DNA of 63,371 nucleotides, counting the filler, from Reclinomonas americana ATCC 50394 (taxonomy: Eukaryota), in assembly GCA_048213135.1 (NCBI GenBank). It is 5 parts of 5 records of this genome, joined end to end, with 100 filler letters (N's around TTAATTAATTAA, not from the genome) between each part and the next. Parts side by side here need not be neighbours in the genome. Positions count along the whole stretch, not along the records: positions 1 to 26,117 come from PS015411.1; 4 more parts are not named here. The stretch is one strand, 5' to 3'. Every line of letters begins with the position of its first letter. The stretch's first letter is position 1. Of the stretch, positions 576 to 42,777 are shown piece by piece. The notes under the pieces were generated by a model, which was given only the letters and a program-made list of their open reading frames with translations, had not been told where the DNA came from and searched no databases. A program made the position numbers and the translations under genes.

Positions 576-3500
576 ATGAGGTGTGTTTTGTTGTGTGTTG
601 CTGTCAGAAGGCGTCTCTCACACTCGCAAACGTTGTTTGTGTTCTTGTCTCAGTCAACAAGAGAGGAGGAAAGCATGGGAGATGGCAAGAGAAGGCGATG
701 TGAAGGCACTGCGCGAGTTGGTGGCGAGTGAGGGCGCACAGACTCTCCTGAAGAGAGAGGAGATGAACTGTCGTTGCTTCTCGGCATATTACTTTGCCGC
801 TGCCTTTGACCATCTCCCTGTGCTGGAGTATTTGTGGGAGGAGAGTGGTGTCGGGCCACAACTCGCACAGTTGCTCGCCGATAGTGGCCGGACGCCACTA
901 ATGCCGGCTTCCTTGAGTGGGTATCTGCAAGTGGTCGAGTGGTTGCTTGCCGATGAGCGACGATGTCCGCCGGAGATGGTGCTGGAGGAGAACAGCTACG
1001 GCGAAACTGCGCTGCATTATGCTGCATCTCAAGGACACGAAGCCATTGTGCTCCTCCTCGCCACTCGCTTCCCCGACCTCATCTACATGGACAGCAACAC
1101 GGGCAAGACAGCAGCTGAGTTGGCTCGTGAAGAAGACCAGCCGCAAGTGGCCGAGTTGCTCGACCGCCTCGCTGCGCAACAACAAGAACAGGCGCGATCT
1201 CCTCCACCTCCGCCACCTGCAGGTTTGGTTGCCATGTTTTCGTTCAGCTGGTGCCCTCGCTTCTCACGCTGTTCCTTGTGTGTGTGTGTGTGTGTATCGC
1301 CCTGCACAACACGCAGTTCCTGCACGCCAGGTGAGGCTGACTCTGTTCGTGAGTGCATTCATCTCCTATCCTGCATTTAATTCTCCTTGTCCCTCTCTGT
1401 CCAGGTGGTCGACGGCGACACCGTAGCGCGTCAGGTTGCTCAACTCCAGCGCGATCTCGCTGCTGCACAGCAGGAGCGTGATCAGCAGCGACGAGAGCAC
1501 GAGGACATGGTGGCCCAGTTGCAGCAAGCCAACGCTCAACTGCAACTTGGCAAGGTCGATGAGGAGCGCAAGAATGCCCAGCTGAAGCAGCAAGTCACTG
1601 AATGGCAACAAGCGCATGCCAGAGAGCAACAGCAAGTGGTCCAACTACAGCAGACTGTCACGCAGTGGCAGCAAGCGCATGCTGAGGGACAGCGAGCGTA
1701 TGCCCAACTGCAAGCCGAGCGAGATCGAATCGCCTCCCAGTTGACTGTGGCTCTGCGCGACAAGGACGATCTCGCTGCTCAGCTGCAAGAAAAGGATCAA
1801 CTCGTCTCCCAGCTTCGACAGGAACTCCTCCTCGCTCAAGGTCTGCATGCCTGTCTTCTCTTTCCTTGATCTCACCGTTTCTCACTCCCTTCCCGCTCAT
1901 TCCACAGTAGACACTGCCGTGCAGCGCTTCGAGTGGCCCGAGATCGTGCAAGCCACCGACTCCTTCTCCCCACGCCTCAAGGTCGGCGAGGGTGGTCAGG
2001 GTGCCGTATTCCTCACTCTGCTTCGCGAGATGCACGTGGCCATCAAGGTGCTCGACCCCGCTGCACCGTGGACGATGGAGTCGTTTGAGAGTGAGGTCTG
2101 TCTCTTCCTCTCTCCTCTTCATTGCCTCTCTTTATCCACATCCTTCTTCCCTTCCTCACAAGGTGGCCACCCTCGGACGCCTGCGCGACCGTCGCATTGT
2201 GCCTCTCGTCGGCTACTCGGTGGGCGACGACGAGGCACGCTGTCTCGTGTACAAGGCGATGCAGTGCGTTTCTCATCTCTCTTCATCTCATCCATCGTCG
2301 CCTCACTGTGAAAAGCACACAGAGTCCCCAACCTGGAGGATCTGTTCCTGCTGCCACGCGCAAGTCAAGCACCTCTCTCCGTCCTGCAGCGTGTGCAGAT
2401 TGGTCTCGGGTTGGCCGAGGCAGTGGCGTTCTTGCACAAGGTTTGTTGCATTAAAATAGTCTTCCTCTTTATCTTTGTTCTCTCTGCTTGAGCTCTCTTT
2501 CTTCTTTCCTCCTCGTCACTCTCTTTTTCTCTCTCGAACCCTCGTGCTCTCTTGTCCACTTCTTATACAAGGGCCGCTGCATGAGAATGATCTCCCTCTC
2601 AGTCATCTTTCCATCTGCTTCTCACTTCTTCTCTCGTGCATCTCCATGTGACTCTTTTGTTGTCCTTGTTGCTGGCAGTCTCCCGTGTTCTTTGCTTCCT
2701 GAGTTGTATTTCACTGGCCACCAACAGACAATGAGCAACAGCCAGCAATCGTTGACGTATCTCGTGCTGTTTGTCACTCTCTCGCACACAACCTGCGCTT
2801 CTCTCTCTCTATCTTTTTTTGCGCAGGCGCTCTCTCGTACTCAATTCTCTTTCCTTCATTCACGCTCTGTCAACATGATCCTCATCAACTGCCTTTCTCT
2901 TGTCTCTCGTTTCTTTCTCTCCTTTCTTTCCTATTCACTCTCCGTGTGTCCTTTGCCCTTTTTTCCACGCACCACACTCCTCAGCACGTATGGTGCTCTT
3001 CCTTGTTGATCCTTCTCTCACTTCCTTTTCCCCCTTCTTTCCACTCACCAGAACGACGTGGTGCACCGTGACATCAAGCCCGCGAACGTGCTTCTCGATC
3101 AACGCTTCGAGGCGTGCCTCGGCGACTTTGGCATTTCGCGGTCGACTGCCAGTGGCAAGGTCAGGTCTTCTTCTTCTTCTTCTTCTCTCACGCCCTGTCT
3201 CTCACGCTCTCCCCTCTCGCAGTCGACCGCCGCCGCCGGCACCCTCGACTACATGGACCCTTTGGCCCTCTACGCGAGACAACCACTGCCCAAGCACGAC
3301 GTTTACAGCATGGGCGCGGTGCTGGTGCAGCTGGTCTCCGCCAAACCCGTGGTGACGGTGGCCGAGTGGTCTCTGGAATGGGACGAGTCGCCAGAGTCGC
3401 TGCGCCCCATGGAGCTGGTGGATGGTGGCGTGGAGTGGACGCCACGCATTGCCGAATCTATGTTCGAGCTCGGCATGCAGTGCATGAGTGTGCGACGAGA

Positions 3501-3579
3501 CAGACCGACGGCGCAGGAGGTGCTGGAGAGGATGCGTGCCATTCGCGAGGCGTGTGGGCAGTTCACGATGGAGTTGTAA
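576..3579 (+). CDS. Ankyrin-repeat / coiled-coil / RLK-Pelle (IRAK-like) kinase, paralog 1 (9 exons, ~631 aa)
   Basis: GT-AG exons 576-580, 654-1222, 1317-1330, 1405-1840, 1908-2095, 2163-2263, 2323-2440, 3052-3159, 3223-3579 sum to 1896 nt in frame. ANK motifs GRTPLM, GETALHYAA, GKTAAELA; poly-Pro linker; Gln-rich coiled coil. Kinase motifs RFEWPEIVQATDSFS, GEGGQG, VAIK, HRDIKPAN, DFG, GTLDYMDP, DVYSMG. Confidence 0.88.
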
Positions 3580-3986
3580 GTGAAAGCTGATGAAGGAGAA
3601 GGGTGGTTTGACAAGCCCTCGTGTCTTCCTCGCCGCAGCGAGCACCCAGTGACAACTCCATGCACTTGACTATATGATACCCTCCACTCCTCTTGCTCGC
3701 CCTGTTATCGCATGCTCAATGGCATCCCTTGACCATTGACCCCTGGTGGCACACGAATGAGGTCAAGGTTTACCAAGATACATTAAAGGGTGGTGGTTGA
3801 GTGAGAGCAAGCAGCGTCGCCTTCCTCATCTCAGCAGCAGAATCGTCCGCCATGAAACAGGACACGCGGAAGAACTCGTCGAACTCGTCCTGTCGTCTCT
3901 TGTCACAGACTGACAGAAGGCAGGACGAGAAGACAGTGTGCTCTGTGTGTGTGCGAGTGTCCCTGCCTGGATTCTGGGTTGAGAAG

Positions 3987-6900
3987 ATGAGGTGTGTGTG
4001 TGTGTCTTGTTGTTGTCGTCAGAAGGCGTCTCATCAACTCACTCACAATCTCATTGTTTGTATTTCTGTTTGAACTGGCAGTCTGCAACAGAGGAAGAAA
4101 GCATGGCAGATGGCGAGGGAAGGCGATGTGAAGGCACTGCGCGAGTTGGTGGCGCGTGAGGGCGCACAGACTCTGTTGAAGAAAGAGGAGATGGCATCAG
4201 ATGGCAACTCGGCATTCTTCTGGGCCGCTTGGTCTGGCCATCTCTCTGTGTTGGAGTACTTGTGGGAGGAGAGTGGCGTCGGACCACAACTCGCACAAAT
4301 GGTCACCGACGATGGCTGGACGCCACTGATGACGGCTGCACGCCAAGGTCAAGTGCAAGCTGTAGAGTGGTTGCTTGCCGATGAGCGGCGATGTCCGCCG
4401 GAGATGGTGCGGGCGGTGGACAAGGTCGGTGAGACTGCACTGCATAAGGCTGCTCTGGATGGCTTCGATGCCATTGTGCGACTTCTCGCCACTCGCTTCC
4501 CCGACCTCATTCCCATGGTCAACAAATATGGCAAGACGGCGGCTCAACGGGCAAGCGAGAGAGGCAATCTGCAAGTGGCCGAGTTGCTCGACCGCCTCGC
4601 TGCGCAGCCAGAACCACCATGTCCACAACAACAACAAGAACAACAACAGCAGGCGCGATCTCCCCCACCTGCTCCACCTGCAGGTTTGGTTGCCTGCTTT
4701 TTGTGCACTTGGTGCTCTCTCTTCTCACACTGTTCCCTGTGTGTGCCTGCGTTTATCACCCTCCGCAACACGCAGTGCCAGCACACCAGGTCAGGCTGAC
4801 TCTGTTCGTGAGTCATCCATCTCCTGTCTGGATTTAATTCTCCTTTTCCCTCGTCTGTTCAGGTGGTCGACGACGACACCGTGGCCCGTCAGGTCGTCAA
4901 ACTCCAGCGCGATCTCGCCGCAGCGCAACAAGAGCGCGACCAGCAGCAACGAGAATGGGATCGGCAGCGACGAGAGCACGAGGACATTGTGACCCAGTTG
5001 CAGCAAGCCAACGCACAACTTCAACATGGCATGGTCGATGAGGAACAGAAGAATGCTCTGCTGCAGCAACGAGTTTCTCAGCAGCAGGAGATCAACGCCC
5101 AGCTGCAGCAGCAGGTCACTCAATGGCAGCAAGCCGTCGCGCAGTGGCAACAGGCGCACGCCAGAGAGCAGCAGACAAACGCCCAGCTGCAAGCCGAGCG
5201 AGATCGAATCGCCTCCCAGCTGACTGTGGCGATGCGTGACAAGGACGACCTTGCCGTTCTCGTCTCCCAGCTCCGACAGGAACTCCTCCTTGCTCAAGGT
5301 CTGCATCTGTTCCCTCTGCGTACATTTTTCTCAAACGTAGTTGTCCATGTCTCACTCCGTTCCCTCTCATTCGGCAGTCGACACCGCCGTCCAGCGCTTC
5401 GAGTGGCCCGAGATCGTGCTCGCCACCGACTCCTTCTCCCCACGCCTCAAGGTCGGCGAGGGTGGTCAGGGTGCCGTCTTCATCACTCTGCTTCGCGAAA
5501 TGCACGTGGCCATCAAGGTGCTCGACCCCGCTGCTCCATGGACGATGGAGTCGTTTGAGAGTGAGGTCTGTGTTTCTCTCCTGTTTCCTCTCTCTCTCTC
5601 TTCTCATCCTTCTTCAGGTCGCCACCCTCGGACGGCTGCGCGATCGACGCATTGTGCCTCTTGTCGGCTACTCGGTGGGCGACGACAAGGCGCGCTGTCT
5701 CGTGTACAAGGCCCTGCAGTGCGTGTTCGTCTCTTTCCTCTCTTTCCTCAATCATTGCCTTACTGTGAAAGCACACAGAGTTCCCAACCTTGAGGATCTG
5801 TTGCTACTTCCGCGTGCCAGCCAGGCACCACTCTGTGTCGTGCAGCGTGTGCAGATTGGTCTCGGACTGGCCGAGGCTGTGGTGTTCTTGCACAAGGTCG
5901 CTGCTCTCTGTCTTTCTTTCTCTCTGAATCAGCTCTCTCTTCTCTTTTCACTCCTTGTGCCGCTCTTGGCTCTCTCAAACCCTCATGTTCTCTGGTCCAC
6001 TTCCCTCACGAGGTCTGCTGCGTGAGAATGATGTCCCTCTCAGTCCTCTTTGCACTCTACTTTAGCTCTCTCTTCTCTTTTCTCATTGCATTTCTTTTGT
6101 GTTGTCTTGTCTCTCCAACCCTCATGTTCTCTGCTCCACTTCTTTCACATGGTCTGCTGCGTGAAATTTATTATCCTTCTCAGTCATCCTTGTTCTCTAG
6201 TTTAGCTTTCGCTTCTCGTTTTCCTTCTCTTTCTTTCGTGCCGTCTTGTCACTCGCAACCCCTCATGCACTGTGCTTCACGTCTTTCACGAGGTCCGCAG
6301 TGTGAGAATGATCTCTACTTCTCTCGTGCCTCTCTTTGTGGCTCCTTCGTTGTCCTTGTCGCTTGCAGACTCTTGTATTCTCTGCTGCCCCACTTGCTTC
6401 TACTGGCCGCCAACGAACAAAAAGTAGCAACTAGAGATTGTTAACATGTCTCGTGTTTTCGTCACTATCCCGCGGGCTCCTCCCTCAGTTTCTTTCTCTC
6501 TCGCACACTCTGTCTCTTTCTCTCTCCCTTCCTAGGCACTATCTCACGCCCTTTTCTCTTGCCTTATTTCACTCTCTCTCAACGTGATCCTCATCAAGTG
6601 TCTTGCTTCTCTTTCGTTCCCCCCTCCCCCACGCACCACTCTTGTCTCAGGTGTCTAGCTCTTCGTTAGCCTGCTCTCACTTCTTGCCCCCCTTCTTTCC
6701 ACTCTCCAGAACGACGTGGTGCACCGCGACATCAAGCCCGCCAACGTGCTGCTCGATCACCGCCTCGAGCCATGTCTCGGTGACTTTGGCGTCGCGCGGT
6801 CGACGATCGGAGACAAGGTCTGCTGATTCCCATCCGCCACTGCATCCGTTTCCACCCTCTCACGCTTTCTCCTTGCCTCTCAGACAACCAATGTCGCCGG

Positions 6901-7240
6901 CTCGCGCGGCTACATGGATCCACTCGCACTCCTTGTGCGCCGCCCTCTGCCCAAGCACGACGTATACAGCATGGGCGTGGTGCTATTGCAGCTGGTCACC
7001 GGCAAGCCGGTAGAGATGGTGGCCGAGTGGTTTGTGGAATGGGACGAGTCGCCCGCCTCAATGCGCCCCATGGAGCTGGTGGATAGGGGAGCAGAGTGGA
7101 CGCCGCGCATTGCCGAACCAATGTTCGAACTGGGCATGCAGTGTGTGAGTGTGCGACGAGACAGACCAACGGCGCAGGAGGTGCTCAACAGGATGCGTGC
7201 CATTCGCGAGGCGTGTGGGCAGTTCACGATGGAGTTGTGA
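3987..7240 (+). CDS. Ankyrin / coiled-coil / RLK-Pelle kinase, paralog 2
   Basis: Exons 3987-3991, 4082-4683, 4776-4789, 4863-5298, 5378-5565, 5618-5718, 5779-5896, 6710-6817, 6884-7240. Same intron positions and phases as paralog 1; VAIK, HRDIKPAN and DFG intact. Confidence 0.88.
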
Positions 7241-7563: not shown

Positions 7564-10500
7564 ATGAGGTGTGTTTTGTTGATCTAGTCACCATTTAGTC
7601 GCACTCTCATTATGTGTTTCTGGTTGAACTGGCAGTCAACAACAGCGACAGAAAGCATGCACAATGGGGGCTACTGGCGATGTGAAGGCACTGCGCGAGC
7701 TGGTGGCGCGCGAGGGTGCACACACTCTGCTGAAGGGAGAGGAAATGAGCGACTATGGGAGCTCGGTGTTTTACTTTGCCGCTGCCAGAGACAATCTCTC
7801 TGTGTTGGAGTATTTGTGGGAGGAGAGTGGTGTGGGGCCACAACTCGCACAAACAGTCAATGACTATGGGTGGACTCCGCTGATGGGGGCTGCCGCCGGT
7901 GGGCAACTGCAAGTGGTGGAATGGTTGTTGGCCGATGAGCGACGATGTCCGCCGGAGATGGCGCGGGCGGTCACCAATGACCGTGATTCTCTCTATCCAC
8001 AGTCCACTGCACTGCATTTAGCTGCCAGAAATGGCCACGATGATGTTGTGCGACTCCTCGCCAATCGCTTTCCCGACCTCATTCCCGTGGTCAACAAGAC
8101 CGAGAAGACGGCGGCTCAGGTGGCACGCGACAAGAACAGGCAACATGTAGCCGAGTTGCTTGATCGCCTTGCTGCGCAGCCAGCACCACCATGCCAACAA
8201 CAACAACAGTCGCGATCTGCCCCGCCTTATCCACCACCTGCAGGTCTAGTTTTGACATCTTCTCTCTTGTTTGTCTAGCTGGCTCTCCCCTCTCAAGCTG
8301 CTTTGTATGTGTGCATATGTGCATATCTCCCTGCGCAACATGCAGAGCCGGCACTTCAGGTGAGAATGTTCATGCCTATCCATCGTCCTTCCATTTCGGC
8401 GTTGTTTTCTTCTCTTGGCACCAATCTCGTCTAATTCGTTGCAGTTTGTTGCTGACGAAGCTACGGCTCGTCAGATCGCTCAGCTCCAGCACGATCTCGC
8501 CGCAGCGCAACAAGAGCATGCTCGGCAGCGGGGAGAGTGGGATCGACAGCGATGTGAGCACGCTGATATCGTCGCCCGGCTGCAGCGTACTGTCATGGAG
8601 CTCGAGCAAAGGATAGAGGAAGAGAGACAACGTGTCTCTCGTGTTCAGAATGAGCTGGATTGTGCTGCAGATCAGCTTGCTCTAACCCTGTGCGCGAGAG
8701 ACTCCACGGCCGCCCAAATAAGTACCTTCCGACAACACGTGCAAGGGAGAGACGCCGTTCAAGGTTTGCGGTTTGTGTCTGGACTGTTCTCTCTCTCTCT
8801 CTCTCTCTCTCTCTGCCAAATTATTGTTTCAAAGTGAGTCGTTTTGCTCGCAGACGATGTCATGTGTAGATTTGTAATGTTATTGATTTCGCTCACTGCT
8901 CGCACCAACGCAGTCGACCTCGCCACTAGGCACGATAAGCCTGCCGTGGAACTCGCCACCGACACGGAAAATGTTGCGCACTTTGCTGATCCTCCGCAGC
9001 TCAGTGCCAGCTTACCTGCTGATCGGTGCAACACTGATGAGGATGCTTCGGAGCTCAATCAAGTCAGACGCAAGTTGGCAACAATCATCGCCGACCGCGA
9101 TGAACTAGAACAGCAGCTGGCTCAATCGCGGCATACCTCTGCCACAGTTGCTGCCGAATGCAGTGACTTGCGTGCAGAACTCGTCATGTCTACCGCTGTG
9201 CGCGACGATTTACAGCAAAGGGTCCGTGAGGTGGAAGGCCAGCTTCGCGCTCTGTTCCACATGGACTTTCTCAGGTCTCTCGTGCGCTGCTTTGCTGTTT
9301 TCTCCTAGCACTGTTCATGGTGTGCTCACTTATTGTTGACAACGTGTGTTCAGTGACCGTCGTCGGATTTTGATGCTGACAGAAGTTGTGCACGAAATAA
9401 TTCCGCTCGCTCTCGGCTCGCTGCTGCAACTGCTTGTCGCCAGTTTCTTTCCTGGCGAATTTCACATTGAGCAACTGTGCCTCCCCGCTCCACCGCCAAG
9501 GTGCGCGATTGCGCGCTGTCTTCACAATGTCAAAGCAGGTTCAATTGTTCATGTGATAATACGTTTTTGATGTGTAGATATTGTCGAATGTTGCTGGATA
9601 AGCGAGGAAACATTCGCATGCGGTCCGCGGAGCTGTATCCTTCCAACTATGAAGCAGTGTGCAAGTTCAAGCGGAGTGGAGAGACGACGAAGATGGATGT
9701 GTCGCTCCTCAGTACTCTACTGTTGCACACAAGCTTTGTTTCAGCCGCCGCCTGCCGTGATGCAGATCTTCTCGAGAGCCGCGTACGCCTCGATCCTGTC
9801 ACCCGCAGAGATCGAATGGCTGTGCCACTGCTCGCTGAACCGGCAAGGGTAAGCATCGTCGATGAGTATTCATGATCGTGCAAGGAACCCACTCGCTCTC
9901 GTCGATGCAGATTCGAGCCGTCGAAAACTTGCGAGATGTGCGCCATCGAGTGTCTCACTTGGCCCGACTTTCCGCACTTGAGGATGCAGAATATGTGAGT
10001 GTCATGCGACTGGTACGCGACTCGCTTCACGCTCTCTTCCCCGAAGGACATGAGAGTATCCAAATGTTGTTCCAAGCATACAAGAGTTACGAGACTTGTA
10101 CCGGAACCGCTTGCGTTTTCTCTCTTCACACTCACTCATCATTGATACAGACGTGAGCCACATCAATGCTACGGCCGAATTGGTCAAGGAAAGAGCTGGC
10201 AGATTTGTGATTCGCGCACCCGTTGTGCGGGTCTCTGATCTGTCGCCTACGAAGCGACTGACGATTGGTGTCTTGATCTCTACGTTGGTTCTTCGGATAT
10301 TCTCCACAGCTCGGTACTTATTGCTATCCCACAGGGCAAGTTGCTATCACAAAAGCTGTTCTCCGTCTCGGCGGTTTGACGCAGACTGTTGCGTACAAGC
10401 AATATCAACTGGCTCATCAGAAAGATTGTGATTTGCAATCGGCGGACTGGGAAATGGTACGCCAGAACTACGAAAGCGAACAATCTCTGCTGATGCAACT

Positions 10501-10875
10501 CGAGTTGCGTGCTGGTGGTGATTACTGCAGTTTAATGCTTACCTCCCTTGCTGATGCACTCGAACACAGTCATCCGAACATTGTGAAACTGATGGCAGTA
10601 TGCAGCGACGATCCGCGTGGTCTCGGTCTCGTTCTTGAATTTGTTGGTCCACAAGACGAAGATGGAGACTCAGTGACGCTTTGCGACTTGGTGAAGGACG
10701 ATCGCGTGACGTCTCAACACCTGCTCAGTCTTCTCGTGCAAGTGGCGTCGGCCGTGGTACACATGCACTCTAGGCGCGTGGTGCATCGAGACCTTAACCC
10801 CCGAAGTTTCGTTCTTCATTATGTCGTGGAGACCGGTGAAGACAAGTTGGCAGCACTTTAGTGCTGCGGTACATA

Positions 10876-38083: not shown

Positions 38084-41000
38084 TCATCGTCCACCCTCGT
38101 CGATCACTTCTTCACGGCCGACGCCACCCACAGCACCAAGCGCGTTGGCGAAATCGGGTAAGACGGTGCCGAGAATACGATCCACAAGCCCACGAGCGTT
38201 TCGACGCATCAGAAAGATCCTCTTGCCGGACACACGGGCGGTGCACGCAGAACCGAACGCCATGCAGCGAAGATACGTCACACGTTCCGCTGAGGGGTTC
38301 ACGAGGTCCGCCTGCTCATCAAGAGGCACTTCTTCTCCAGTCGACAGTGACCACACCCGAACTTCTCCGTGATCACCGCGACTCACGATGTACTGGCCAT
38401 CGGGAGTGACGGCGACAGACCATACCCAAGCAGAGTGTCCCTCCAGTCGAAGCAGTTCCTCTCCACTTGCCAGCGACCACACTCGTATCGTACCGTCCAG
38501 ACTCCCACTTACGACGTGCTGACCATCGGGAGTGACGGCGACAGACTCCACACTACGAGTGTGCCCCTCAAGTCGGCGCACCTCCTCGCCGCTAGCCAGT
38601 GACCACACTCGCACTGTGTAGTCACCACCTCCGCTCACAATGAACTGACCATCAGGAGTGACGACGACACTGTTCACCCAGCCAGTGAGTCCCTCCAGTC
38701 GGCGCACCTCTTCTCCACTCGCCAATGACCACACTCGCACCGTCCTGTCAGCACCTCCGCTCACAATGTACTTGCCATCAGGAGTGACGGCGACACATGT
38801 CACCCCACTCGTGTCTCCTTCCAATCGCCGAACTTCTTCTCCACTCGCCAATGACCAAACGCGCACTGTCATGTCACGGCCTCCGCTGACAATGTGCTGA
38901 CCATCGGGAGTGACGGCGACACACGTTACCTCACCATTGTGCCCCTCAAATCGACGCAATTCAACTCCACTCATCAAAGACCACACCCGAATAAACCCGT
39001 TTCGACTCCCACTCACAGCGTGTTGACCACCAGGAGAAACAGTAAACGCAGAGGACTGTCCTGCCGCCTTCCACAATTCCTCGCCTGTCGACACAGACCA
39101 CATCCTCACCGTGCTATCATAACCGGCACTCAAAACATGCTGACAATCGTGGGTGAGCACGACTGAACGCACCAATTCCGTGTGTCCACCCAACCGTCGT
39201 ACCTCTTCATCACCTATCACAGGCCACATTCGTACTGTCATATCTAAACTCCCACTCACGATAAACTGACCATCAGGAGTAATCTTGATTGAATTCAATG
39301 CGCCAGTGTGCCCCTCCAGTCGGCGCACCTCTCCGCCACTCGCCAGTGACCAAATTCGCACAGTTGAGTCCCCACTCCCGCTGACGACGTGCTGCCCATC
39401 CGGAGTGACGCCGACTGCGTATACTGCGGCAGCGTGTCCCTCAAACCGTCGCATTTCTTCTCCACTTGCCACCGACCACACTCGCACAGTCCTATCCCCA
39501 CTGCCACTCACAATATGCTGGCCATCTGGAGTGACGGCGACAGAATTCACCTCTCCGGTGTGTCCTTCCAGTCGGCGCACCTCCTCACCACTTGCCACCG
39601 ACCACACCCGTACAGTCTTATCCTGACTGCCACTCACAATGTGCTGGCCATCGGGTGTCAGTGCCACTGCTGACACTCCCCGCATGTGGCCCTCCAGTCG
39701 CCGTACCTCCTCGCCGCTTGCCACCGACCACACCCGCACAGTCTTGTCATTACTGCCGCTCACGACGTGGAGGCCATCGGGTGTCACTGCCAAGGCTGAC
39801 ACCTCCCTCGTGTGGCCATCCAGTTGGCGCACCTCCGCGCCACTTGCCAGCGACCACACCCGTACAGTCTTGTCATCACTGCCACTCACAATGTGCTGGC
39901 CATCGGGTGTCACTGCCACTGCTCGCACCCAATCCGTATGGCCTTCCAGTCGGTGCACTTCATCTCCGCCCGCCACAGACCACAATCTTACAGTCCCATC
40001 CAAACTACCACTCACAACGTGCTGGCCATCAGGAGTGACGGCGACAGACGTCACCTGGCCAGTGTGACCCACCATCGGCTTCCTCGGCCACTTCACACCC
40101 ATCACATCCGCCCCTGTGAAATCCGCCTCCCTCGCATACGCCAAGCACACATTCACCCCTCGCAAATCCGCCCCCCTCCACACCGTCCTGTGCATCACCG
40201 CATCCCTCAAATCCGCACCTCTCACTCGCACACCCGACAGATCTCGCCCACTGAACGGCACCTGTGCCACACACAACACCGTCGCTGCATTCGCGGCGGC
40301 CGTCACCACCCGCTCCTCATCTACCTCCCGTGACATCTCAATCACCTCCCACAGTCTCTCTTGCAGTCGGGGAGACCGTCGCACCACCTCCGCAATCTGC
40401 TCCACCAACGATAGTCGATCGTTCAGCAACCGCACTGCCAACACATGCTGCTGCACATCTTGCATCGTCAATCTCCTCTCCTCATCCCACGTCTCCCACG
40501 CAAACGCATGTCGTGCCACACAATGCTCCAGCAGCGACAGATGCACAAATCCCCATTGCGTCGTCCCATACCGTCGCACAATCGGACAGCACGCTCGCAC
40601 ATGCTGATTCTTGTGACCAAGGAACTTGTCAAACGGTCCCTCTTCCACTCGTCGCAAGGCGAGTGGCGCACCACCGAACTCGGCAATGTCCTCATCGAAT
40701 GCACGCTCCTCTGACACCGCTCGCACAACATTCCTCTCGTACATCAATCGTGCCAATCCCTCACAGAATGCCAGACACGTTTCCTCACTCGGCACACGCT
40801 CTTCACCAAGACGTGTCTGCCTCTCCTGCTCCCTCTCAGTCCATTGTCGAATGAATCGGTCAAACACATCACACCGAGTTGGTCGCTGCACACCACTCGC
40901 CACCAATTGCGGCAATACACGAGCCACCACTGCCAACAGGAACGGATTCGACACCAATGCATCCAGTCCACGCACACTGTTCAGTGCATCAATGTACTCC

Positions 41001-42777
41001 TCGGCAGTCGACCACCGCTTTTCGCCACCGTCATCATCATCGTCTCCACCCACTTGCACCAGCCGCCCAAAGTACTCCTCAATCTGCTCCTTGTTCAACG
41101 GTGCAATGTGTCGCTCCATCAACTGCTGCATGCACAACTGTCCTCGTGCATCCACCGGTGCAAAGTACCGTCGATACTGCGTCACGCCACCCAGCGCTGT
41201 CAGTGCGTAATCGCCTCGACAGGTGATAATCATCTTCACATCACGACACACGTCCAGCTGGTTCTTGACAAACAGATTCACACCACGATACAACTCGTCG
41301 TACCCGTCAAGCAACAACAGCAGTGGTTCCTCCTTCAATCGCCGCACATCCGACTCGCTGAATCCCAACTCGGGTGACAGTCGCTCCAGTGCCTCCTCCA
41401 ACAGTCGCTCATCGGCATTGCGCAGTGCACCAAGAGGCACACGCACAGGCACTCGTTTGCTCTCTCCCGTCTGCCACTGTCGCCATGCTCTCTCTGCCAA
41501 CACAGACATGGTGGTGGTCTTGCCGGCCCCGCTGTTGCCAAACAACACCAACACACGCTGCGTGGTGTTGGTGTCGGAGAGGAAACTATCCACTTCCGTC
41601 AACAAATCAGTCATCTTGTCTTTCGACGAGACATCACGATCACGTGAACACAGCAGTGGCACATACATCAGCATGTCCTTGTGCATGCTCTCATCGTGCT
41701 GATAGAATGACAGCTCACGCAAAGCCAGTTGATGCAGTCGCTCATCAAATGTGCTGATAACGTGCTGAACGTGACGTGCCTCGCAGACACGAGCGGAGAA
41801 TCGAGCACGCTCGTCAACCGTCAACTGCAGTCGAGAGAGGATGGAGAGGAAAATCCCACTGTCACTAAGATGCGTACGCACACTGTCGTCCGTCAACGGC
41901 AACTCATCATGCCTCAGTTTGTTCCTGACACTGTGCAGCTCTTCCACTGCCTTCCGTTCGTCAACATCGTCAATCAGCAGTACCTTGCAACCGTCATCTT
42001 GAATGAAGCCGCCATACAACATGATGGAGGAGAGAGCCGTCGTATCGAGACCGTCACACGGCGGGTCGGATGAGGGATCGGCGTCGAATGCAACACGCCA
42101 GGCCAACACCACTGGCTGCTTCTCCTCAAACAACTTGACACGAGAGGGGTGGAGCGGAGCATGTCGATCACGCCATCGCTTCAATGCCGCTGCACTCATG
42201 CCAGCAGGTGTGCAACTCGACACCCATGCTCGCACGTCAAAGTCGGAATGATCACGACTGAACTGGGCCAGTGTGCGTCGACACCGCAGACGCACGGCCT
42301 CCTCGACAACCTCGAAGGCCATGCTGATGCGCTGTGAGTTGACCATGCTGTGCACCCAGGGCCGTCAGCATCACAGAATGAGTAAGCAGGGGAGAAGGAT
42401 GACAAGCAAAACAAACCGAGTGACTCGCTCCGAGTTGCTGCTGGGAGATATGAGAGTGAGCTGCATGGTGTACACAGGGGATGCCACATCCAGACATGCA
42501 CACCTTCTTCTCCCGCTCCCTCCACTCGACTGCAGCGCCACACCAAGTGTCAGACGGACAACGAGATGCGTGGATGAGTTGATGCCGAGTGTCTTCAACT
42601 TCAACACACTCGCATCCTCCAAGTCGAATGCCATCGGCTTCTCCACCCCCACAACCTCCATCCCCCCATCTCCACACTTCTCTCGCAGCAAGCGAGTGGC
42701 CTCGCGCAGCAAATCCGCAAGAGTGGACATGGCCGACATGCCCTCCACCACCACCGACAGTGATGAATCATGCGCCG
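38084..42777 (-). CDS. NLR-like STAND protein: (ubiquitin-like?) - HEPN - NACHT - pentapeptide repeats - 14 x WD40; 5' end in gap
   Basis: Exons 42777-42504, 42440-42417 (24 nt) and 42347-38084 join in phase 2. LDTTALSSIM..VEELHSVRNKLRH (41926-41909). Walker A GNSGAGKT (41539-41516); Walker B LLLLLDGYDE; IITCR; NPFLL; FVHLSLLE. AAANAATVL..DLSGVRVRGADLRDA pentapeptides. 14 GH..W repeats. Confidence 0.9.
38330..40069 (-). repeat. Array of 14 WD40 coding repeats (~126 bp unit)
   Basis: Consensus GHTxxVxxVAVTPDGQHIVSGSxDxTVRVWSLASGEEVRRLE. Confidence 0.95.

Follow-up and report, generated by a model that had tools for sequence, protein, structure and literature searches.

The 63,371-nt stretch of Reclinomonas americana ATCC 50394 DNA analysed here (GenBank assembly GCA_048213135.1; five parts joined end to end, hereafter the window) contains a small family of genes that combine an ankyrin repeat (ANK) domain with a coiled coil and a protein kinase apparently of the RLK/Pelle/IRAK type (RLK, receptor-like kinase). 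The window DNA is eukaryotic, its introns being short and bordered by GT-AG, and includes 28 runs of N, 3150 N in total; a reading of the region in terms of prokaryotic open reading frames (ORFs) was rejected because of these introns. All spacings and orders of the copies are given as positions counted along the joined window. A tblastn search with the copy-A exon as the query (E ≤ 2e-62) revealed four homologous ANK exons in the window and no more, with matches at 682-1218 (copy A, plus strand), 4110-4604 (copy B, plus), 7664-8236 (copy C, plus) and 56532-56038 (copy D, minus). The family comprises three genes in tandem (A, B and C), one inverted gene about 46 kb away in window coordinates (D), and at least one more member elsewhere. 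The initial annotation described ankyrin repeats that are hypervariable at binding-surface positions in four paralogs and placed them at 760..1150; this span does contain the variable region of copy A, but it covers copy A only, and the comparison needs the three other exons. The scaffold and variable strings quoted there for the four paralogs are present in the translations of all four exons.

The gene model of copy A was assembled manually using splice sites and reading frames and was then carried to the other copies via DNA alignment. Copies A, B and D are intact genes of eight exons that encode an ANK domain, a coiled coil and an RLK/Pelle/IRAK-type kinase. All three full copies have open frames and seven GT-AG introns at homologous positions; in B and D, 7/7 introns correspond to those of A, and the single stop codon is terminal. 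Their coding sequences are 1863, 1896 and 1929 nt in length, and the proteins are 620-642 aa long. In copy A (plus strand), the ANK exon at 682..1222 encodes an N-cap, three internal ankyrin repeats and a C-cap followed by a Gln/Pro linker (Pfam Ank_2, 2.9e-17), exon 3 at 1405..1840 encodes the Gln/Ala/Leu-rich coiled coil, and exons 4-8 (1908-2095, 2163-2263, 2323-2440, 3052-3159 and 3223-3579) encode the kinase with its catalytic motifs. Copy B (4110..7240, plus strand, 631 aa) consists of exons 4110-4683, 4776-4789, 4863-5298, 5378-5565, 5618-5718, 5779-5896, 6710-6817 and 6884-7240, and copy D (53237..56532, minus strand, 642 aa) of exons 56532-55968, 55875-55862, 55791-55314, 55244-55057, 54991-54891, 54826-54709, 53767-53660 and 53593-53237. 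The ANK exons of B (4110-4683, plus), C (7664-8243, plus) and D (56532-55968, minus) were identified by both tblastn and Pfam Ank_2. Without a micro-exon of 14 nt, the ANK and coiled-coil exons would not be in frame; this micro-exon is kept in 4/4 copies at the same place and with AG/GT borders (1317-1330 in A, 4776-4789 in B and 8346-8359 in C, all plus; 55875-55862 in D, minus).

Copy C (7664..8837, plus strand) has its first three exons in common with the family, namely the ANK exon at 7664-8243, the micro-exon at 8346-8359 and a coiled-coil exon from 8445; these are followed by a further coiled coil and a different kinase, encoded by downstream ORFs at 10277-10858 and 11555-11812 (plus strand). 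An N gap at 11023-11328 breaks this gene. Copy C looks like a sensor module moved by exon shuffling. The catalytic loop of its kinase reads HRDLNPRS, with Asn replacing the usual Lys. A relic of a further copy is located upstream of copy D at 56802..57196 (minus strand); it comprises the 3' end of a kinase and intergenic DNA similar to the copy-A region 3397-3800 (76% identity over 418 nt, blastn), and the kinase pieces detected by tblastn are spread over three frames. A tblastn search found no upstream exons of this relic before the N gap at 58323. In copies A, B and C, an out-of-frame ATG located 7 nt 5' of the start codon (675-690, 4103-4118 and 7657-7672, plus strand) opens a short overlapping upstream ORF, and copy D has TTG at this place.

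The Pfam Ank_2 threshold is passed by 4/4 ANK exons (E from 2.9e-17 to 9.6e-23; 63-81 bits at a cut-off of 27.3), and a profile search of the PDB with the ANK exon revealed matches to ankyrin-1/2, NOMPC and designed ankyrin repeat proteins (DARPins). The three-dimensional model constructed using AlphaFold2 on a five-sequence alignment (mean predicted local distance difference test score, pLDDT, 95.1; predicted template modelling score, pTM, 0.89) contains an N-terminal cap and four helix pairs. According to Foldseek, the best PDB matches of this model are five-repeat DARPins (probability 1.00, TM 0.78/0.84), with a root mean square deviation of 2.2-2.4 A over about 160 columns. Given these five-repeat matches, the domain as modelled has the DARPin layout of an N-cap, three internal repeats and a C-cap. 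The binding domain comprises about 170 residues, and its modelled inter-repeat loops include an extra short helix.

The coiled-coil segment of A, B and D is 145-159 residues long, rich in Gln, Ala and Leu, and contains no proline. Its hydrophobic periodicity of 3.5 is above that of shuffled sequences in all three copies (p ≤ 0.005), and all three indels between the coiled-coil exons (1405-1840 and 4863-5298, plus; 55791-55314, minus) are exactly 7 residues, which is one heptad; both features are as expected for a coiled coil. Recurring units of the Gln-Trp-Gln-Gln-Ala-His type can be noted in this segment. The kinase was identified by Pfam Pkinase in the region of exons 7-8 (1.8e-18). The proteins translated from A, B and D display the Gly-loop, the VAIK Lys, the HRD and DFG motifs and the GT..Y.DP motif, and the kinase is apparently active, as judged from its sequence. 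When single exons were compared with solved structures only, the closest kinase chains were SymRK (3.4e-5), IRAK4 and Pto in one search and a LysM-RLK (5e-5), IRAK1, CERK1 and BRI1 in a second one. Ahead of the Gly-loop is a stretch that can be aligned with the LysM-RLK motif of juxtamembrane type. The kinases of A, B and D share 85-89% identical residues (246-259/290), in agreement with the near-invariance of the kinase exons noted in the initial annotation; this does not extend to copy C, which has a different kinase.

The only families matched in the Pfam scan of the N-terminal and coiled-coil exons were those of ankyrin repeats and, weakly, one of coiled coils, with no death domain among them. 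No hydrophobic segment corresponding to a signal peptide or a transmembrane helix was seen by eye in the translations of 620-642 aa, where the ANK N-cap starts the protein, and Pfam detected no NACHT/NB-ARC nucleotide-binding oligomerisation (NOD) domain in genes A-D. As neither a death domain nor a signal peptide or membrane segment was seen, the protein is predicted to be a cytosolic ANK-coiled coil-RLK/Pelle/IRAK-type kinase and not an orthologue of IRAK or of RLKs.

The variability of the ANK domain was compared with the positions used in binder libraries. The DARPin set of Binz et al. 2003 is said to consist of positions 2, 3, 5, 13, 14 and 33. These positions of four repeats were taken as 24 a priori columns, in a repeat numbering that puts the Thr-Pro-Leu-His-type motif at positions 6-9, as in the paper on the ANK-N5C library (PMC4308713). 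In that library, positions 2, 3, 5, 10, 13 and 33 are reported as randomised, and they are described as a continuous binding surface formed by beta-turn 1 and helix 1 (PMC4308713). Among the four copies, 23/24 a priori columns are variable, compared to 47/148 other columns (Fisher p=1.4e-9), and three or more residues occur in 14/24 and 18/148 columns, respectively (p=2.2e-6). Position 10, located in helix 1, is variable in 4/4 repeats. The alignment of the ANK domains of A-D contains only three small indels.

The rates of substitution differ substantially between the parts of the gene. In the pairs of copies A, B and D, the synonymous divergence (dS) of the whole ANK domain is 0.28-0.41 and the nonsynonymous divergence (dN) is 0.19-0.22, which corresponds to a dN/dS ratio (omega) of 0.54-0.71. 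For the kinase, dS is 0.39-0.47, dN is 0.06-0.09 and omega is 0.13-0.20; the omega of the coiled coil is 0.14-0.23. At the 24 a priori codons, dN reaches 0.78-1.25; these codons contain about 12 synonymous sites, so that dS is not reliably estimated there, and introns provide the reference. Alignable introns (952-1196 nt per pair) give K=0.30-0.36 for A, B and D, and the agreement of this value with dS shows that a lowered synonymous rate is not the cause. The dN of the a priori codons is 2-4 times the intron divergence, and the excess of nonsynonymous over intron differences is significant in 3/3 pairs (Fisher p=3.5e-6, 6.3e-8 and 1.2e-3).

Codon models lead to the same result. They were fitted with our own Goldman-Yang F3x4 code to four taxa, for which the best topology is ((A,B),(C,D)). 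Model M2a (log-likelihood -1580.84) is better than M1a (-1604.50), with twice the log-likelihood difference (2dl) of 47.3 (p=5e-11), and M8 (-1580.92) is better than M7 (-1605.23; 2dl=48.6) and than M8a (-1604.63; 2dl=47.4), whose additional class is constrained to omega=1. The positively selected class of M2a has omega2 of about 16 and includes about 9% of codons. In the partition model, omega is 3.03 for the 24 a priori codons and 0.43 for the rest, and omega=1 is rejected for the former (likelihood ratio test, 2dl=25.05, p=5.6e-7). If the partition is limited to the three internal repeats, omega is 3.65 (p=1.8e-7), and the published ANK-N5C position set gives 2.86 (p=2e-6). Thus, dN/dS at the binding positions does exceed 1, a test that had been set beforehand by the initial annotation.

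Twelve codons have a naive empirical Bayes (NEB) P(omega>1) above 0.8 under M2a. Eleven of them correspond to copy-A residues 29, 30, 33, 42, 78, 79, 113, 116, 140, 147 and 154 (766..1143, plus strand), and the twelfth to residue 3 (nt 688-690, plus strand). Nine of the 12 are at repeat positions 2, 3, 5, 10, 13 or 14, a set of 28/172 columns (p=3.7e-6), and 10/12 lie within repeat positions 1-14, which make up the concave face (p=7e-4). The location on the concave face proposed earlier is borne out in this way, mapping being by repeat position and secondary structure. In the AlphaFold2 model, the sites occupy the loops before helix 1, helix 1 itself, or the turn after it.

Several controls were performed. 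The M2a/M1a-type test on A, B and D gave 2dl=50.2 for the ANK domain but no signal in the coiled coil (1.07) or the kinase (0), and 14/14 null simulations under the fitted M1a gave 2dl values of 0-3.70. With the two other topologies, 2dl is 51.3. In the leave-one-out sets, the site test is still significant (2dl 14.3-50.2), and the partition omega is 2.0-9.4 (p=9e-3 to 6e-12). IQ-TREE gives the same M0 fit (lnL -1648.827, omega 0.608, kappa 1.80).

An independent comparison is provided by P0194, an ORF of 154 aa from a Reclinomonas americana expressed sequence tag (EST) in EukProt, which is 69-77% identical to the copies in the window and identical to none of them. It matches 74/80 columns that are invariant in A-D, and at 9/21 binding-surface positions of repeats 1-3 it has a residue that is new relative to A-D. 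P0194, being an EST product, shows that at least one member of the family is expressed. It also shows that the pattern predicts a sequence that was not used to find it. A Reclinomonas transcriptome is listed as deposited on Figshare (PMC11513930).

P0194 is the single close relative detected. The search with the ANK exon among longer proteins gave 166 matches among 6824 candidates, with a best identity of 43% (P0003); in the all-against-all comparison of representatives, only P0194 is close (70%) among the 150 listed of 38391 matches, the others being 28-44% identical; and the search with the ANK profile among proteins of near length gave 22 matches among 8000 candidates, where again only P0194 is close. 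Kinase exon 8 has no match at E<=1e-8 among 682 longer candidate proteins, and the metagenome scan with the ANK profile gave 555 pattern matches, of which 0 were confirmed. No such family is described in the literature searched on RLK/Pelle/IRAK kinases with ankyrin repeats in protists or in that on the nuclear genome, kinases and gene families of Reclinomonas.

The repeat framework, the coiled coil and the kinase are under purifying selection, whereas the residues of the beta-turns, the inner helix and the following turn have undergone replacement at a rate above that of neutral DNA divergence, which is positive selection for different binding surfaces. We consider it probable that this is a small duplicated family of ANK-coiled coil-kinase proteins with a positively selected binding face, in which each paralog has a different protein ligand coupled to the kinase. 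Each paralog would bind its own ligand in the ankyrin groove, and the binding would be passed on via coiled-coil-mediated oligomerisation and activation of the kinase; alternatively, the paralogs may bring different substrates to the same kinase. Coupling of groove binding to a common kinase output is suggested by the roles that the ankyrin groove, the coiled coil and this family's RD kinases play in other proteins.

Several facts weigh against this reading. The variation had been claimed to occur only at binding-surface positions; almost all a priori columns do vary, but position 33 is not hypervariable (MMMM, LVVV, EVVV and DVVV in the four repeats), and 11/32 columns with three or more residues are outside repeat positions 1-14. 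These 11 columns are at the N-terminus, in the last helix of the C-cap and in a few other places, and 2/12 NEB sites are also off positions 1-14. Selection is not uniform across pairs: for the C-D pair, dN at the a priori codons is 0.30 at a dS of 0.29-0.38, so that omega is about 1, and without copy A the partition test falls to p=9e-3. The sample consists of four coding sequences and one protein, too few for precise site calls, which are NEB and not Bayes empirical Bayes (BEB), and our codon code was checked by IQ-TREE at M0 only and by simulation. Finally, the same positions are reported to be the most diverse across 7,407 ankyrin repeats in general (PMC8415598; its numbering is shifted by two), so that the pattern alone proves no selection, and the case rests on the comparison of rates.

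Positive selection for different surfaces can also be read as specialisation after duplication: the copies would each have adapted on one occasion to an endogenous partner or substrate of their own and would be under purifying selection at present. The signal would then reflect past episodic selection and not a repertoire. The copies are few, old and intact (dS 0.3-0.5), the ANK exon of copy C is joined to another kinase, which suggests modular adaptor use, and the C-D pair has an omega near 1 at surface codons. However, omega exceeds 1 in every leave-one-out set, the fifth copy P0194 is again new at 9/21 surface positions, and the change is spread over all lineages, as seen from a nearly star-like tree whose terminal branches are long. 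We regard this explanation as tenable, at somewhat below even chances.

A diversifying repertoire of non-self receptors in an ongoing arms race, for example, with bacterial or viral effectors, would include many members and alleles kept different by balancing or diversifying selection. Such a repertoire is possible, although we are rather doubtful of it. It agrees with omega>1 at the binding face, with the tandem, dispersed and relic copies, which point to birth-and-death turnover, with a kinase type that plants and animals employ in innate immunity, and with the presence of a NACHT-WD40 STAND gene within the same window; a precedent is reported for the ankyrin repeats of fungal NLR proteins (PMC4986451). 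On the other hand, four window copies, one relic and one EST copy are all that is known, the duplicates are old (dS 0.28-0.54) without a recent burst, and no close relatives beyond P0194 were found in the other protein collections or in the metagenome scan searched. The ligands may be either foreign, as in an immune-like arms race, or endogenous, as in specialised paralogs.

Relaxed constraint would mean neutral drift of the exposed loop and helix-1 positions on a conserved framework. It agrees with the general diversity of these positions in ankyrin repeats, but we rejected it as highly improbable, since omega at the a priori codons is significantly above 1 (p=6e-7), M8 beats M8a (2dl=47.4) and dN is 2-4 times the intron divergence.

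It is equally hard to believe in a mutational or mosaic artefact, be it local hypermutation, patches converted from diverged donors, a homogenised framework or misaligned sequences. Conversion is common among tandem paralogs, recombination can inflate site-model tests, and the A-C pair does have a nominally long identical run (p=0.011, run-length test); yet the other 5/6 pairs have no conversion-like run, tree-free pairwise tests agree with the codon models, the alignment includes only three small indels, and the dS of the ANK exon (0.28-0.41) resembles that of the kinase (0.39-0.47) and the divergence of introns. In codons for invariant residues, synonymous change is not higher near variable codons (15/32) than far from them (22/57; p=0.51), which argues against local hypermutation or imported patches. 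Hypermutation and a conversion mosaic were rejected on the basis of the run-length, synonymous-change and pairwise tests.

The boldest proposal, which we consider unlikely, is that these proteins are jakobid cytosolic sensors, in which an arms-race-variable DARPin-like ANK domain would recognise foreign proteins such as bacterial or viral effectors and signal via the coiled coil and the Pelle/IRAK/RLK-type kinase. If this were true, a fast-evolving repeat sensor and a kinase of this type would serve non-self recognition outside plants and animals; the lineage may branch near the eukaryotic root, and this would point to great antiquity or to repeated invention.

The closest precedent for selection on the binding face is found in fungal NLR-like STAND proteins (Podospora Pa_3_8560 and relatives; Dyrka et al. 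2014), for which positive selection at concave-face ankyrin positions is reported (PMC4986451). Diversifying selection on ankyrin repeats and the fusion of a recognition module to a signalling module are common to both systems. The fungal proteins, as described there, are built around a NACHT/NB-ARC core and carry many repeats that are nearly identical, polymorphic in number and subject to concerted evolution, whereas the proteins of the window have no NOD domain, a fixed domain of five repeats, no homogenisation from repeat to repeat, and a coiled coil and kinase as output; in addition, variation is compared here between paralogs and not between alleles. DARPins, including ANK-N5C (PMC4308713), have the same size and fold, and the natural variation occurs here at positions that designers randomised. 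Unlike DARPins, the domain studied is a natural one with longer inter-repeat loops containing the extra short helix, an attached kinase and a position 33 that is not variable, and copies C and P0194 carry an insertion of 5-6 residues in the third beta-turn.

The solved kinase domains closest to that of the family belong to RLK/Pelle/IRAK proteins (plant SymRK, CERK1, LysM-RLKs and Pto; animal IRAK1/4), which also pair a variable recognition module with a kinase. In contrast to them, no signal peptide, transmembrane segment, or extracellular leucine-rich repeat (LRR) or LysM part was seen here, and no death domain was detected; recognition would be cytosolic, via the N-terminal ANK domain and the coiled coil. 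Ankyrin repeats and a TKL-type kinase are also combined in cytosolic proteins such as ILK, RIPK4/ANKK1 and TNNI3K, where the domain order or the kinase subfamily differs from that of the window genes. To our knowledge, each of them is a conserved gene in single copy, and no diversifying selection on its ANK face has been reported.

Fungal NLR-like proteins are a known case of positive selection on the concave ankyrin face, which is also the face that engineers use in DARPins. The window shows this principle in another architecture, that of ANK domain, coiled coil and RLK/Pelle/IRAK-type kinase, and in a jakobid, a member of a group with almost no functional genomics. The family is a compact testable system: the binding domain is small, the specificity positions number about a dozen, and the catalytic read-out is conserved. 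It can be used to ask what free-living heterotrophic protists must discriminate and whether kinase-coupled variable sensors predate plant and animal immunity. If the ligands are endogenous, it is still a clean natural case of specificity re-design on a fixed ankyrin scaffold.

Several other genes are located in the window. The NACHT-WD40 gene is a STAND/NLR-like gene with an uninterrupted ORF of 1426 aa (38087-42364, minus strand), in which a NACHT NTPase domain (Pfam 9.6e-9) is accompanied by a pentapeptide repeat and an extended array of WD40 repeats. This ORF is intronless amid an intron-rich region and sits between the ankyrin-kinase copies in window coordinates. An arginase-family gene with at least two exons (16704-19405, plus strand), a D-glutamate cyclase-like C-terminal domain (59001-59792, minus strand) and an ion-channel domain (Ion_trans_2; 61741-62703, plus strand) are unrelated to the ankyrin-kinase family. 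Long open frames on both strands at 12138-14350, which are rich in Pro, Ser and Thr, contain short tandem peptide repeats and have no Pfam match, are probably low-complexity or repetitive DNA.

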